A DNA stretch of 64,000 bases from an uncultured bacterium (lineage in GTDB: Bacteria > Verrucomicrobiota > Kiritimatiellia > RFP12 > UBA1067). Shown here piece after piece: positions 39,210-44,075 of this stretch. Within the stretch, counting starts at the first letter, position 1. Every line of letters starts with the position of its first letter. The notes beneath the pieces are model-generated. The model worked only from the letters and a program-made list of their open reading frames with translations, did not search any database and was not told where the DNA came from. The stretch covers positions 1,586 through 65,585 of the forward strand of contig CACWIW010000015.1 in NCBI GenBank assembly GCA_902761035.1, written 5' to 3'. A program made the position numbers and the translations under genes.

Positions 39210-40123
39210 AGATTGCCTATTTGCTTGACCGGCAATCCGTCGGCGGCGGAACGGAATACGTCCGGCATCAGATGGCGGCGCATCCGCATGATGAGTGCCG
39301 GGTGTTTGCGTCGGTTCGCGGCGAATGCACTGCCGCCTGTATGAACGAATGGGGGGCGGATGTCGTTCACGTCAACCACTTGAAGGCGCTCATACAGCTC
39401 TTCCGAAACCCTTTCAGGAAGCCCCGGGGAAAGGTTGTGTTCACCGTTCACGGCATACATCTGAGGAAATACGATTTTCTCCCAAAGACGATTATGAACC
39501 GCCTGAAGCGTTTCCTGCGCCTTTTACTTGAACGTTGGCTCTACCGCAGATGCGACGAGTTGATCGCTCTTACGGAAACGGACGCGGCGGATATCCAGCG
39601 ACTTTACGGCCCCGCGCTTCCTGTAGTAGTAGAACCTAATTCGGTGAACGTAGATGAACTGGCGCAGCCGATGGATACGCTCCGCTACCCGCTCGGCGAG
39701 TTCGCGTTCGTCTGCATCGCACGGTTCGACTTCCCCAAGGGGCAGGATATCCTCCTTCGCGCGATTGCCCAGGTCCAGGACCGCCTGCGGGCGAGCAGGC
39801 GGCGGACGCTTCTCATCGGCGGTGGTCAGATGCTGGACTCGATGAAGCGTTTTGCGGAGGCGTCTGGAATCTCTGACCTCGTTGAGTTCGCCGGAGAAAT
39901 CCCGGATGCAGGCGTCTACATGTTGTGCGGTGAAAAACTTGTTGCGCCAAGCCGTTGGGAGGGAATGCCGTACCTTCTTCTGGAGGCTGTTGCGCGCGGA
40001 CGCTCCGTCATTGCCAGCGACTGCCCCGGCAACCGTGACGTCCTGAAGGACTACGCCTCTGCACGGCTTTTCAAGGTTGAGGACGCGGAAGGGCTTGCCG
40101 CGTTGATGGAGGAGGGCGCTTGA
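39206..40123 (+). CDS. GT4 glycosyltransferase (Glycos_transf_1)
   Basis: ATGA overlap with the upstream stop. The EX7E motif is intact: SRWEGMPYLLLEAVARGRSVIASDCPGNRDVL. Confidence 0.85.
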   Translation: MKIAYLLDRQSVGGGTEYVRHQMAAHPHDECRVFASVRGECTAACMNEWGADVVHVNHLKALIQLFRNPFRKPRGKVVFTVHGIHLRKYDFLPKTIMNRLKRFLRLLLERWLYRRCDELIALTETDAADIQRLYGPALPVVVEPNSVNVDELAQPMDTLRYPLGEFAFVCIARFDFPKGQDILLRAIAQVQDRLRASRRRTLLIGGGQMLDSMKRFAEASGISDLVEFAGEIPDAGVYMLCGEKLVAPSRWEGMPYLLLEAVARGRSVIASDCPGNRDVLKDYASARLFKVEDAEGLAALMEEGA

Positions 40124-41114
40124 TGAAGACGGCGTTGCTGCATTACTGGTTGACCAACCGTCGCGGGGGCGAGCAGGTCTTGTCCGCACTGGGGCGCCTG
40201 TTGCCGGACGCCGACATCTACACGCATGCGTTCGGGCATAAAATACGCACGCCTGGCGAGGACGGCGTGTGGGAAGGGCATCGCGTCTGGGAGACTTTCA
40301 TCGCCCGCCTGCCTTTGGGACGACGGAAACCGCAGGCGTATCTGCCGTTAATGCCCGTTGCGACGCGCAGGATCGCGCTCGACGGATACGATCTCATCGT
40401 TTCCAGCGAGTCTGGGCCGATCAAGGGTATACGTAAGCCGAAGGGCGCGCGACATATCTGCTACTGCCATACGCCCATGCGCTATCTTTGGGATCTGCAC
40501 GATGAGTACTACCGCGACGCAGGTCCGTTGGGGAAGCTTGCAATGCGTCTCTTCACGCCGTATCTCCGGCGCGAGGATTTAAAGAGCGCGGAGTGTGTCG
40601 ATACGTTTGTCGCCAACAGCGCGTTCGTCGCGGATCGTATAAAGCGTATTTATGGTCGTGATTCTACGGTCGTCTATCCCCCTGTGGACGTGGATTTCTT
40701 CGGTGACTGCGAGCGTACCCCCGGCGACTATTACCTATTCGCCGGTGCGCCCGTGAAGTACAAGCGGCTAGACCTCGCACGCGCGGCCTGCGCACGGCTT
40801 GGCAGACGCCTCGTCGTGGCTGGCGGCGGGGAATTCACGCGCGAGGACATGCGCGCGGCATACGCGGGCGCGCGGGCGCTGCTTTTCCCGGGCGAACGCC
40901 CGTCATCGCCTACGGCTTTGGCGGGGCGCGCGAAACGGTCGTATCAGGCGAGACGGGACTTTTCTTCGCGGAGCAGACGGTTGATTCGCTCTGTGCCGCC
41001 ATGGAAGAGTTCGAGAGCCGCACATGGGCTCCCGAACGCTGCCGTGCTCAGGCCGCACGTTTCGCCCCGGCAGTTTTCAGCCGGAGCATGAATACTGTGC
41101 TGTATGGCCAATAA
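40123..41114 (+). pseudogene. GT4 glycosyltransferase disrupted by an internal deletion/frameshift that removes the EX7E block
   Basis: The start is ATG 40123 (TGATG overlap with the upstream stop). The frame reads ...ARALLFPGE (to ~40896) and then turns into Arg/Ser-rich nonsense ending at 41091. The conserved GT4 continuation PVIAYGFGGARETVVSGETGLFFAEQTVDSLCAAMEEFE is found in the shifted frame from 40899 to TAA 41112-41114. The expected E-D-F-G...E-A-x-A-x-G segment is absent. Confidence 0.6.
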
Positions 41115-41151
41115 GTCATCACTCAAAAGTAACTCGAACACTCCATCTAGT

Positions 41152-41297
41152 ATTGTTCACAAATCTTCATTGCCACCATTGTTCACAAATCACAAATATC
41201 AATAGTGGAGGGGGAAGGTCCCTCCTATTTGTATTGGTGGCAATGGTGACATTTGTGAACAATTGAGATTTGTGAACAATCGCAATTGTTCACAAAT
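41152..41297. repeat. Cluster of five copies of the 13-mer ATTGTTCACAAAT (orientation + + - - +) around a GC hairpin
   Basis: Copies lie at 41152-41164 (+), 41178-41190 (+), 41251-41263 (-), 41268-41280 (-) and 41285-41297 (+). Copies 4 and 5 form a perfect 13-bp inverted repeat with spacer CGCA. Extra inverted pairs are CATTGCCACC (41168-77) with GGTGGCAATG (41236-45), and ACAAATA (41192-98) with TATTTGT (41226-32). The central hairpin is GGAGGG (41207-12) pairing with CCCTCC (41220-25). Confidence 0.9.
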
Positions 41298-41337
41298 GTG
41301 CAAGTTATTGTTGAGCAACGACTAAGCCAAGAGAGCC

Positions 41338-42270
41338 TTACGAATTGGCCATGTGTACGCTGAGCTGCGGGAACGGAATCGAGATGCCCTCGCGCTCGAA
41401 CGCCTCCTTGACCGCCTGCTGGGCACCGGAGAATACGGTCCAATAGTCCGCACATGCCGCCCACGGGCGCACGTTGATCGTCACAGAAGATTCGCCGAGC
41501 AATCCGACGGCCACGGTCGGCGCGGGGTCGGGCAGCACGCCGGGGACCTTCGCGAGTGCCGCTCGTGCCGCAGACACGGCCTTCGTGAGGTCGGTGCCGT
41601 AGGCGACGGCTACGACGGTGTCCACACGACGCTTGCCGAGCGCGCTGAAGTTCGTGATCGCGCTGCCCCAGACGGATGCGTTCGGCACCGTGATTTTCTT
41701 GTTGTCCGCCGTTGCAAGTACCGTTGCCATCATGTTGAGTTCAATTACGGAACCCTCCACGCCGCCTGCGATGATGTAGTCGCCCACCTTGAACGGGTGG
41801 TTGAGAGCGATCATCAGTCCACTTGCAAGGCTTCCGAGAGACTCCTTGAACGCGAAACCCAGCACGACTCCGGTTACGCCGAGGCTCGCCACTAGCGGCC
41901 CCACGTCCACCCCGAGGCGGCCCAGCGCGACGACGAACAGGATTGCCCAGCACGTCTTCGAGACGACGCTGCAGATGAACGTGCGCAGAAGCTCGTCCAC
42001 GCGCTTTGCCTTTGAGAGGGATTTCCGTACCGCCGCGACGATGCCTTTCACGACGAGCCCGCCGACGAACAGTATCAGCACGGCTGAAAGCAGGTTGACG
42101 GCCAGGTCAAGACCGTTCTCGGTCAGCCATGTCGTCGCCTGCTTAAAGGCCGCCTGGCCCTCCGCCGCCTGCCGGCTCACGGTATCAACAAGCTTTGCAC
42201 CTGCCGTCTGTGCGGCGCACGTGAGCGCGTTGGTCGTGTTTGCCGCTGCTTCAACTACTTCGTTTGTCAT
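41338..42270 (-). CDS. mscS: Small-conductance mechanosensitive channel (MscS family)
   Basis: 310 aa starting at ATG 42270, with RBS AAGGAG upstream on the minus strand. The 515-aa ORF in the track extends spuriously into the upstream gene. The motif GVTGVVLGFAFKESLGSLASGLMIALNHPFKVGDYI is present. Confidence 0.9.
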   Translation of the reverse strand: MTNEVVEAAANTTNALTCAAQTAGAKLVDTVSRQAAEGQAAFKQATTWLTENGLDLAVNLLSAVLILFVGGLVVKGIVAAVRKSLSKAKRVDELLRTFICSVVSKTCWAILFVVALGRLGVDVGPLVASLGVTGVVLGFAFKESLGSLASGLMIALNHPFKVGDYIIAGGVEGSVIELNMMATVLATADNKKITVPNASVWGSAITNFSALGKRRVDTVVAVAYGTDLTKAVSAARAALAKVPGVLPDPAPTVAVGLLGESSVTINVRPWAACADYWTVFSGAQQAVKEAFEREGISIPFPQLSVHMANS

Positions 42271-44075
42271 TTCTTTTTTCTCCTTTTGTAGACCATCATG
42301 AGGTTGCGGCCCTTGAAGGCCAGACATACCACGAGAAGCGCGAATACGGAGAGCAGTATCTCCGAGCCGTCGACGAGCCCGTTGATCGGCGTCGGAAGAT
42401 TGCTCTTTAGAGACGGGAAGACAAGGCTCGCGAGGTTGAACAGTAGTACCGTCGCAGATACGAACAGCACAGACCAGAAAAGCCATGTGCGCAGTGATGC
42501 GTTGAACGACGGCAATTGCGCGGGCTTCGGTGCGGGCAGCGTGGGCAGCGGCGGCAGAAGGGCCCCATCCTGCTGTTTCGGCATTGTGCGCTGCACTTGG
42601 ATCTTGCCGGACGCCGTGCGAGGGAAAGGCTCTTTGCGCGTGATGGCGTGTTTGATGCGCTTGTGGACAGGAAGTTGTCGGTTCAAGGAGTCGATCTGCC
42701 TCTTTACGGTCTCCTCGGATACTACGGCGTAGACTTCCGCCACGATCTCTCGCGTTGCGCCGTCTCCGTACACTACGGCTTCGTGAATGCCGGGTATTGA
42801 GAGGATTTTCTCCTCCAGTTCCTCCGGTGCCACCTTCTTGCCGGAGGAGAGCACGATCGTGCGAGAGGCGCGCCCCGTGATCCACACGTAGCCGTCTTCG
42901 TCAATGCGTCCGATGTCCCCTGTCCGGAACCATCCGTCCGCATCTAGCACGTCTGCCGTGCGCGTCGGCTCCTTGTAATAGCCCTTCAGTACGGCGGGGC
43001 CGCGCAGGAGGAGCTCGCCCTCCGGGGATACTTTCGCCTCCATGCCGCCGAAGCCGTTACAACACTTGCCCGCGCTGCCGGGGCGGGGATCGTCCACGGG
43101 AGCAAGGGAGTAGAGCGAAGTAGTCTCCGTGAGGCCGTAGCCGCCGAGCGGACGGATGCCGAGCGACAACAGCCTTTCGTATGTGCGGCGCGCGAGCGGT
43201 GCGCCGCCCACGAGGATCCAGTCTATCGGCGTGCCGAGCACGGTTTCCGCCGATGGACCGTGCTGGGCTATCTTGTTGGCAAGGATGTCCGCGAGCGCGG
43301 GCACTAGGAATAGATAGTTCGCGCGGAAGCGTGCCACCGCGTCGTAGATGCGGCGGAAGTCGGGGCACACGCCGAGCGACACGCCGTGCGCGAGCATAGA
43401 GTAGGTGGTGCAGAGTCCGAAGATGTGGTAGAGCGGCAGCAGCATGAGCGAGCGCGAGCCCGGCTGGAAGCCGAAGGCAGTCTGGGCGAACTCCGAGAAC
43501 GTGCGGATGCCACGCAGCGTCAGCTCCGCTCCGCGCGGCTTGGACGTGGTGCCGCTCGTGAACACGATCATCGCCGTCTCGTCCTCGTTACGCGGCGGGA
43601 GGTCGAACACGCTGTCATCGCCCATGTCGAGCGCCGCGCGCGCGAGGGCCATCAGTTCGTCCGCCTTGTGGGAGCCGAATCCGCCCACCACGAGGCCGGG
43701 CAGCAGACGCTCCACTTCGCGCGCCTTCTCCACGTAGAGCGCGCTGTGGACGAGGTACGTGGCGCCGGTGAAGGCGAGGCGGTCCACGATTTCCTGCGCG
43801 GAGAGGTTGACCTCAAGCGGCACCACCGTCACGCCGGCGAACAGCCCTGCCGCGTGCGCCGTAATCCACTCGTATGAGTTTTCGCCGAGAAGCCCCACCA
43901 CCGCGCCGGGGGCATAATGATTCACTATCCAGGCGATCTCCTCGATGTCCTCGGCGAATTCGCGCCAGGTGATGGGTACGGAACGGTCGCCGGCGGCGAT
44001 GAGGAATGCCGGTTCGTCCGGGCGCCCGTCCCGGTTCTGTCGGAATTGCTCCAGTAATGTAGTTGCGCGTGTCAT
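42267..44075 (-). CDS. AMP-dependent synthetase/ligase (long-chain acyl-CoA ligase-like) with two C-terminal TM helices
   Basis: The start is ATG 44075 (MTRATTLLEQ). Motifs: FTSGTTSKPRGA, GGYGLTET and WFRTGDIGRIDEDGYVWITGR. The C-terminal hydrophobic segments are WLFWSVLFVSATVLLFNLASLVF and ILLSVFALLVVCLAF. The stop overlaps the mscS start (ATGA). Confidence 0.9.
   Translation of the reverse strand: MTRATTLLEQFRQNRDGRPDEPAFLIAAGDRSVPITWREFAEDIEEIAWIVNHYAPGAVVGLLGENSYEWITAHAAGLFAGVTVVPLEVNLSAQEIVDRLAFTGATYLVHSALYVEKAREVERLLPGLVVGGFGSHKADELMALARAALDMGDDSVFDLPPRNEDETAMIVFTSGTTSKPRGAELTLRGIRTFSEFAQTAFGFQPGSRSLMLLPLYHIFGLCTTYSMLAHGVSLGVCPDFRRIYDAVARFRANYLFLVPALADILANKIAQHGPSAETVLGTPIDWILVGGAPLARRTYERLLSLGIRPLGGYGLTETTSLYSLAPVDDPRPGSAGKCCNGFGGMEAKVSPEGELLLRGPAVLKGYYKEPTRTADVLDADGWFRTGDIGRIDEDGYVWITGRASRTIVLSSGKKVAPEELEEKILSIPGIHEAVVYGDGATREIVAEVYAVVSEETVKRQIDSLNRQLPVHKRIKHAITRKEPFPRTASGKIQVQRTMPKQQDGALLPPLPTLPAPKPAQLPSFNASLRTWLFWSVLFVSATVLLFNLASLVFPSLKSNLPTPINGLVDGSEILLSVFALLVVCLAFKGRNLMMVYKRRKKK

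Follow-up and report, generated by a model that had tools for sequence, protein, structure and literature searches.

The question raised by this locus is whether five closely spaced 13-mers resembling DnaA boxes, at the edge of a glycan locus, serve the control of replication or belong to something else. The cluster lies in a stretch of 64,000 nucleotides (hereafter, the window), which is part of contig C15 of the MAG G000 (6.14 Mb in 315 contigs, 59.7% GC, about 90% complete). A first description, made from the letters alone (the sequence-only reading), had favored a DnaA-box cluster of the oriC, datA or DARS type and had listed a MITE/REP-like element among the alternatives. The MITE/REP-like alternative stood, whereas the lead DnaA-box reading did not.

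The arrangement described at the outset was confirmed in its details. The 13-mer ATTGTTCACAAAT is present in five exact copies in the order + + - - + (Table 1), and five matches were reached in 0 of 100 dinucleotide shuffles of the window, even when up to two mismatches were allowed. The spacing of the left-arm pair (26 bp) and that of the right-arm pair (17 bp) are the norm for the repeat family described below. Between copies 4 and 5, which are separated by 4 nt (CGCA; I7), the palindrome is perfect over 13 bp. The swapped inverted pairs are CATTGCCACCA/TGGTGGCAATG (11 bp, I9; segments X and X' in Table 1) and ACAAATA/TATTTGT (7 bp, I11), which do not keep the same order relative to the 13-mers in the left and the right arm. 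The arms are out of register because X' sits inward of both right-arm 13-mers. A GC hairpin (GGAGGGG...CCCTCC, 41207-41225) occupies the center of the array, the DNA is AT-rich (GC 0.385 at 41100-41299 vs about 0.6-0.7 in the flanks), and the neighboring genes, one for a GT4-family glycosyltransferase (GT) on the + strand and mscS on the - strand, are convergent. The fold of the whole element is a long hairpin (z of -8.3 as DNA and -7.2 as RNA; -76 kcal/mol as RNA). An Rfam scan of 40900-41600 returned just sub-threshold plant and animal miRNA-precursor models (27.6 bits vs a gathering score of 249), and these matches were taken as the reflection of a generic long hairpin and nothing further. 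The five-copy state is not an assembly artefact, as a public assembly made independently for the same species (RUG068 scaffold, locus L102) has an identical element, copy 5 included. The scaffold in question (OMXR01000144.1, 2.3 kb, labelled 'uncultured Sutterella sp. RUG068') is 99.1% identical to positions 40907-43240 of the window; it evidently comes from Kiritimatiellae and was wrongly binned with a Sutterella MAG.

Table 1 Features of the element, of its neighbors and of the dnaA-dnaN region (positions are those of the window unless a contig is given)
Feature	Position	Strand	Remarks
GT4-family glycosyltransferase gene	40120..41114	+	Two reading frames; element on its stop codon
Left target duplication TAA	41112..41114	+	Stop codon of the Glycos_transf_1 (C-terminal) frame of the upstream GT4-family gene
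Left terminal inverted repeat GTCATCACTCAAAAGTAACTCGAAC	41115..41139	+	Conserved in all long-form copies
13-mer copies 1 and 2	41152-41164, 41178-41190	+	Direct, 26 bp start to start
X segment CATTGCCACCA	Between 13-mer copies 1 and 2	+	
Central GC hairpin, then T-rich run	41207..41235	+	Intrinsic-terminator-like on the + strand only (terminator-like matches 41207-41226)
X' segment TGGTGGCAATG	41235..41245	+	Complementary to X (I9)
13-mer copies 3 and 4	41251-41263, 41268-41280	-	17 bp start to start
13-mer copy 5	41285..41297	+	Derived site
Right terminal inverted repeat, GTGCAAGTTATTGTTGAGCAACGAC on the + strand	41298..41322	-	Reverse complement is GTCGTTGCTCAACAATAACTTGCAC
Right target duplication TAA	41323..41325	+	
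mscS-type mechanosensitive channel gene	41338..42270	-	Convergent; PF00924, PF21082, PF21088
dnaA	C29:9112-10542		
TTATCAACA-type box cluster	C29:10588-10713		dnaA-dnaN spacer
dnaN	C29:10820-11920		
TTATCAACA-type box cluster	C29:13236-13334		AT-rich run of six boxes

The 13-mer is not restricted to this locus. When up to one mismatch was allowed, 176 matches were found in the assembly vs 2 for a reversed control, and these group into 66 clusters on dozens of contigs. The modal layout, ++-- with spacings of 26/74/17, is found at 24 of the 66 clusters, and the ++--+ pattern of the window occurs once among them. A profile search of G000 recovered 61 loci, all of them intergenic. Such dispersal, over about 60 intergenic loci, is the outcome that the sequence-only reading had itself named as refuting an oriC-, datA- or DARS-type cluster. 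The 13-mer array is the core of one copy of an ordinary dispersed repeat rather than a site that controls replication. The repeat family is confined to rumen Kiritimatiellae MAGs, with full-length copies only in G000 and in the sister species G021 and G024 and fragments in a few other genomes; viral contigs gave no match to it.

A role of the window cluster in replication initiation, as a DnaA-binding site of the oriC, datA or DARS kind, is very improbable. The likeness is close, as TTGTTCACA is one position off the DnaA-box consensus TTATNCACA, its reverse strand TTGTGAACA departs from TTATCAACA, the box type of this genome, only at positions 3 and 5, and the dnaA-dnaN spacer holds one TTGTGAACA. 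However, TTGTTCACA occurs 168 times genome-wide, with 26 clusters of at least three, and clusters of at least four TTATCAACA-type boxes (up to one mismatch) number just two in 6.1 Mb, both on contig C29. The window locus is also missing at the orthologous site of G021, unlike what would be expected of an essential replication element. Counting the motif genome-wide and locating dnaA and dnaN had been proposed as checks on the DnaA reading, and both went against it: the copies are many and dispersed, and the two genes lie on another contig, C29. Copies of the TTATCAACA/TGTTGATAA motif lie upstream of dnaA, between dnaA and dnaN, and, tightly clustered, in AT-rich DNA nearby (Table 1). Since clusters of TTATCAACA are found at dnaA-dnaN only, they indicate the organism's DnaA-box type and a likely origin away from the window; the dnaA-dnaN region of C29 is likely the chromosomal origin, and it defines the box type of the lineage. 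As a unique origin-type locus, the window cluster is refuted. For annotation, a false origin or DnaA-site candidate is removed, and the likely true origin is placed on C29 with its TTATCAACA boxes.

The alignment of the family copies gives the extent of the unit to which the 13-mers belong. Conservation reaches well past the 13-mers, out to 25-bp terminal inverted repeats (TIRs) that are kept across copies (left, GTCATCACTCAAAAATAACTTGAAC; the right one reads GTCGTTGCTCAACAATAACTTGCAC as its reverse complement). The interval 41152-41297, in which the feature was first described, is the 13-mer core alone, and the whole conserved unit is 41112-41325. The window element itself measures 208 bp and holds no ORF. 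Seven of the 8 complete copies have TAA..TAA or TTA..TTA as their flanks, the middle base changing at both ends together. More broadly, TAA or TTA adjoins 35 of the 43 recognisable termini, and in eight cases among these termini a long ORF has the flanking TAA as its stop codon.

Insertion polymorphism was tested by joined-flank searches of the genomes of relatives, which showed directly that the element is mobile. The site orthologous to that of the window is contiguous and empty in G021 (C57), where it reads GGCCAATAAACC with a single TAA, and is filled in G024 (C21) by a copy that is 96% identical. Other sites of the family vary as well: that on C16 is empty in both G021 and G024, that on C54 is filled in both, and that on C33 is empty in G013 and G006. 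The element thus has the structural hallmarks of a MITE, namely TIRs, a target site duplication (TSD), a small non-coding multi-copy unit and insertion polymorphism, and the family combines dispersal, terminal repeats, covarying 3-bp target duplications and empty orthologous sites. The 'MITE/REP-like element' that had been listed as an alternative was correct. Positions 41115-41322 are very probably one copy of a non-autonomous DNA transposon, a 208-bp, non-coding, largely palindromic MITE of rumen Kiritimatiellae that would be mobilised in trans.

In the window, this MITE sits on the end of a gene. The Glyco_transf_4 N-domain of the upstream glycosyltransferase gene is encoded in a frame ending at 41091, and the Glycos_transf_1 C-terminus in the frame ending with the TAA at 41112-41114; the latter frame is open over 135 codons and matches profile positions 116-170 of PF00534. 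The C-terminal glycosyltransferase sequence is common to the sister species G021 and G024. The TAA target is the stop codon of this last glycosyltransferase gene and was duplicated, so the gene kept its stop. On the other side, the mscS stop codon lies 13 bp outside the right TSD. The sequence-only reading had placed the feature at the edge of the glycan locus, which is correct as a position, and had suggested a recombination site marking an island boundary, of which there is no sign; the element is at that edge only because the stop codon that it hit on insertion belongs to the final glycosyltransferase gene.

The fifth 13-mer sets the window copy apart. At its position, both the consensus of the family and the G024 orthologue of the window copy have AATTGTGCCTACAAGTG (in the alignment, CGCAATTGTGCCTACAAGTG in the consensus and in G024 vs CGCAATTGT--TCACAAATG in the window). 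A 2-bp deletion and three substitutions separate the window from this sequence, and together they turn an imperfect palindrome with copy 4 into a perfect one. By this comparison, the fifth 13-mer is a secondary change that followed insertion. A deletion plus substitutions that perfect the palindrome of copies 4 and 5 is the signature of hairpin-templated (quasi-palindrome) correction, and copy 5 would have arisen by repair of this kind acting on the imperfect palindrome. This one copy is a clean case of imperfect-to-perfect palindrome conversion. The tip of the central hairpin is hypervariable, the 26 distinct centers being 67% identical pairwise vs 93-97% for the arms, and the mean fold energy of these 26 centers is -8.25 vs -4.41 kcal/mol for shuffles. 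Hairpin-templated repair would also account for a tip that varies in sequence yet always pairs.

The terminal repeats and the 13-mer core can be separated. An element of about 150 bp at C5:24807-24957 has the same TIRs and a TAA duplication around an unrelated interior. Its existence indicates that the termini define a transposable shell from which the 13-mer core is separable, and the 13-mers are unnecessary for transposition of the shell because this MITE with the same termini lacks them. Several non-autonomous families are probably moved by the same transposase. The interior of the C5 element holds a CTCTGCG...CCTCTGCGTGA motif, which is present at other loci too.

The core, for its part, is found without termini and without the GC hairpin at 16 loci, where its ends coincide with the outer 13-mers. 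No recognisable target duplication was detected at these TIR-less copies. The core-only copy at cysS (C120:16783-16907) is limited to G000, apart from a remnant of a single site in G006, and that at thiG (C36:42525-42637) is likewise limited to G000. A core-only pair at ackA is common to G000, G021 and G024. At eda, G000 and G021 carry different core subfamilies, and G024 and G013 carry none. The presence of two subfamilies in one eda spacer (G000:C78:25712-25819 and G021:C10, ~75830-76020) means that either the site was hit more than once or one copy replaced another by recombination. In species with empty core sites, the downstream gene begins about 15 nt past the preceding stop codon, which indicates that the cores landed in operon spacers. 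We rejected the idea that core-only copies are conserved operators, as they are absent from the orthologous spacers of sister species. In the mechanism that we propose, the 13-mers are part of an inner palindromic core that is older than the shell and has a pair of sites in each arm, spaced 26 bp in one and 17 bp in the other; this inner core also occurs and moves without the outer repeats. The 13-mers may be the protein-recognition sites of the core, i.e., end-binding sites of its own putative mobilising enzyme, an assignment that we infer tentatively and hold with somewhat less than even confidence.

One variant of the core carries a gene. At C187:1992-2452, the loop holds an intact 121-codon gene of the PF05635 family between the ++ and -- pairs of 13-mers. 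PF05635 is the 23S rRNA intervening-sequence/four-helix-bundle family, and an ORF in a hairpin loop recalls the rRNA intervening sequences. This 13-mer-flanked arrangement recurs only in another genome (G019:C264), where the copy is decayed and has the same left pair. The PF05635 protein was considered as the cognate binder of the 13-mers and rejected: close homologues are absent from the copy-rich G021 and G024, homologues are present in G001 and G018, which have zero copies of the repeat, and the homologue loci of G004 are without 13-mers.

It should be noted that the core-only copies have a polarity. A gene start lies within 120 nt of the edge with the 17-spaced pair in 15 of the 16 core-only copies, and no copy has a start at the other edge only; among full copies, 8 of 12 have no gene start at either edge. 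The same polarity is repeated upstream of guaA in G023 and upstream of groES in G040, a genome that belongs to a different family. A plain reading of the 13-mers as transposase sites does not predict this polarity, which counts against our best explanation. The array could instead be a cis-regulatory module on a mobile element, an outward promoter and/or an operator for a conserved host DNA-binding protein; copies upstream of genes would drive or control these genes, and the window copy, between convergent genes, would be silent or of a terminator type. We consider this unlikely. It would fit with 15 of 16 core-only copies facing a gene start at the same edge, with the nature of the downstream genes, which are unrelated housekeeping genes (cysS, thiG, eda, ackA, ispA-like), with the like arrangement of the guaA and groES copies and with the TTGTGA-N16-AACAAT that two 17-spaced sites together make. 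MITEs that bear promoters are also known, as in the case of Correia elements (PMC10969869). However, no site passed in a scan of 41000-41450 for sigma-70-like promoters, the promoters of this genome are enriched in TATAAT (4.9x) and TTGACA (2.7x) and not in TTGTGA or AACAAT, and the copies at cysS, thiG and eda, missing in sister species, were inserted recently into spacers of operons rather than being conserved operators. A built-in promoter in the element is possible, if unsupported. Matches to LexA (TGTTC-N4-GAACA), CRP (TGTGA-N6-TCACA), sigma-54 and ECF promoter sites were dismissed by eye, as their spacings do not fit. In the fullest version of the regulatory argument, the inner core would be a self-mobile, strictly polar cis-regulatory cassette (a portable promoter or operator, or a polarity-relieving element) that is read by a conserved host protein and, throughout an order of rumen Kiritimatiellae, has landed repeatedly in the few nucleotides separating a stop codon from the ribosome-binding site of the following gene, with the shell that duplicates TWA (TAA or TTA) as a secondary amplifying vehicle; taken as a whole, we find this rather unlikely. 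If true, the 13-mers would be a dispersed, regulon-like set of sites spread by transposition. The strict polarity of the TIR-less copies is the one aspect of the family that may prove of interest, should they carry promoters.

The window copy might also have been co-opted as a terminator or insulator between the convergent glycosyltransferase and mscS genes, its long RNA hairpin and its GC stem followed by a T-run stopping read-through, a role that we likewise judge doubtful. The GC stem and T-run are indeed present on the + strand (41207-41235), the folding energy of the whole element as RNA is that given above (-76 kcal/mol), 8 of 12 full copies lie at gene 3' ends, frequently between convergent genes, and the hairpin tip keeps its structure despite 67% identity. 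Nevertheless, the orientation of TIR-bearing copies relative to the gene whose stop codon is hit is unbiased (4 vs 4), which argues against selection for a one-strand terminator; the preference for a TAA target by itself accounts for the 3'-end location, and hairpin-templated repair, rather than selection, can maintain the structure of the tip. Another possibility is that the repeat is a REP/REPIN-type element moved as single-stranded hairpin DNA by a RAYT (Y1/HUH) transposase. Short palindromic units in inverted doublets, strong hairpin potential and core-only copies that show strand polarity without detectable target duplications would all be in keeping with it. Full copies, however, have clear TIRs and a 3-bp duplication, and HUH transposition makes no target duplication; moreover, the sole 13-mer-flanked ORF is the PF05635 four-helix-bundle gene and not a RAYT. 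We therefore regard this reading as improbable.

An observation on cysS may be added here. In four element-free genomes (G004, G005, G012 and G017; loci L134, L136, L141 and L139, respectively), cysS is preceded by GTAGTAGAATATCCGCCATGG, in which a -10-like hexamer, TAGAAT, ends 7 nt before the ATG. This short distance suggests that the cysS transcript of these species may be leaderless or have a very short leader.

For the MITE, a DDE cut-and-paste transposase supplied in trans would recognise the TIRs and cut TWA with a 3-bp stagger. Enzymes of the IS5/PIF-Harbinger type duplicate TWA/TNA, and it is the TWA duplication alone that suggests such an enzyme here. The DDE_Tnp_1 (PF01609) ORFs of G000 have inverted repeats unrelated to the ends of the element, and PF13359 (Harbinger-like) genes number zero in G000, G021 and G024. 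No IS-sized pairs of TIRs were found in G000 or in six to seven relatives, whose assemblies are incomplete and have collapsed repeats, and no autonomous element with matching ends was found in the metagenome matches (10 loci) or in viral contigs. With an assembly that is about 90% complete and in 315 contigs, the missing autonomous element is weak evidence. Several candidates were discarded. The transposase on C28 has a 13-mer pair 1.5 kb away, which lies outside that IS; the solo terminal fragments at C133, C58, C12 and C75 proved to be short remnants, with ordinary genes or other repeats beside them, rather than ends of an autonomous element; and a search for a shared unit of ~1.7 kb beside copies near contig starts turned up just unrelated repeat families. 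When metagenomes were probed with the TIR, 9 of 10 matches were ordinary MITE copies. The exception, L228 (RHMF01009373.1), which is from another sample, is not an autonomous element either, as it reflects a ~3-kb deletion that removes the gene of an 853-aa secreted protein and not of a transposase. Compared with G000:C117:16030-19025, one of its breakpoints falls within a half-element, about 32 nt into the terminal repeat, and L228 looks like a repeat-associated structural variant. Other families of short dispersed repeats are abundant in G000 (C20:1-1715, C133:405-1223, C232:410-496 and many other contigs), with dozens of matches of 80-350 bp at 83-97% identity, and tandem units of the GGGGAATGGGGAATGG and CCCTGCGTAGCTCAAAAATCCCC types adjoin MITE copies.

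A literature search returned nothing on such repeats in Kiritimatiellae, and a 2024 review of prokaryotic MITEs lists none from the PVC group, to which the present work adds a MITE family. The features that make this family instructive are the targeting of TAA stop codons, the nested and separable core, and a tip that changes in sequence with its pairing kept. Compared with known systems, it shares with the DnaA-box clusters of oriC, datA and DARS several 9-mer-containing sites that face either way in an AT-rich stretch of about 150 bp, but it is not unique, does not lie by dnaA/dnaN and is absent from the orthologous site of a sister species. Integron attC sites also have two sites per arm and a variable loop; this identity was rejected, as the 13-mer is without GTTRRRY and the copies are dispersed singly and not in tandem cassette arrays. 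Tourist-type MITEs and derivatives of the IS5 family (IS1031 and IS427 groups) and of PIF-Harbinger are similar in being small and non-coding, with TIRs and a 3-bp TWA (TAA/TTA) duplication, in their many copies, in their preference for genic borders and in their mobilisation in trans, which is inferred here. They differ in that no IS5/Harbinger-type element with matching ends was found in our case and in that the Kiritimatiellae element has an inner, separately mobile palindromic core. To our knowledge, the TIR, which begins GTCATCACTC..., is unlike the ends of the IS5 family.

In size, palindromy, gene proximity and size classes, the closest resemblance is to the Correia elements (CREE/NEMIS) of Neisseria, palindromic MITEs of 100-200 bp found at about 100 intergenic sites, often adjoining genes, with internal protein-binding and promoter-like features, co-transcription as hairpin RNA, and full-length as well as internally deleted size classes (PMC10969869). 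Correia elements differ by their TA duplication, their proteobacterial hosts, and their proven promoters and IHF site, whereas the present family duplicates TWA, belongs to the Kiritimatiellae of the PVC group and is known from sequence alone. Finally, the pneumococcal BOX, RUP and SPRITE repeats and the enterobacterial ERIC and BIME repeats are also built of modular short boxes and have nested or composite copies, terminator-like hairpins and a location at gene ends. These repeats are mostly without a clean signature of TIRs plus a TSD, whereas the Kiritimatiellae element has both.
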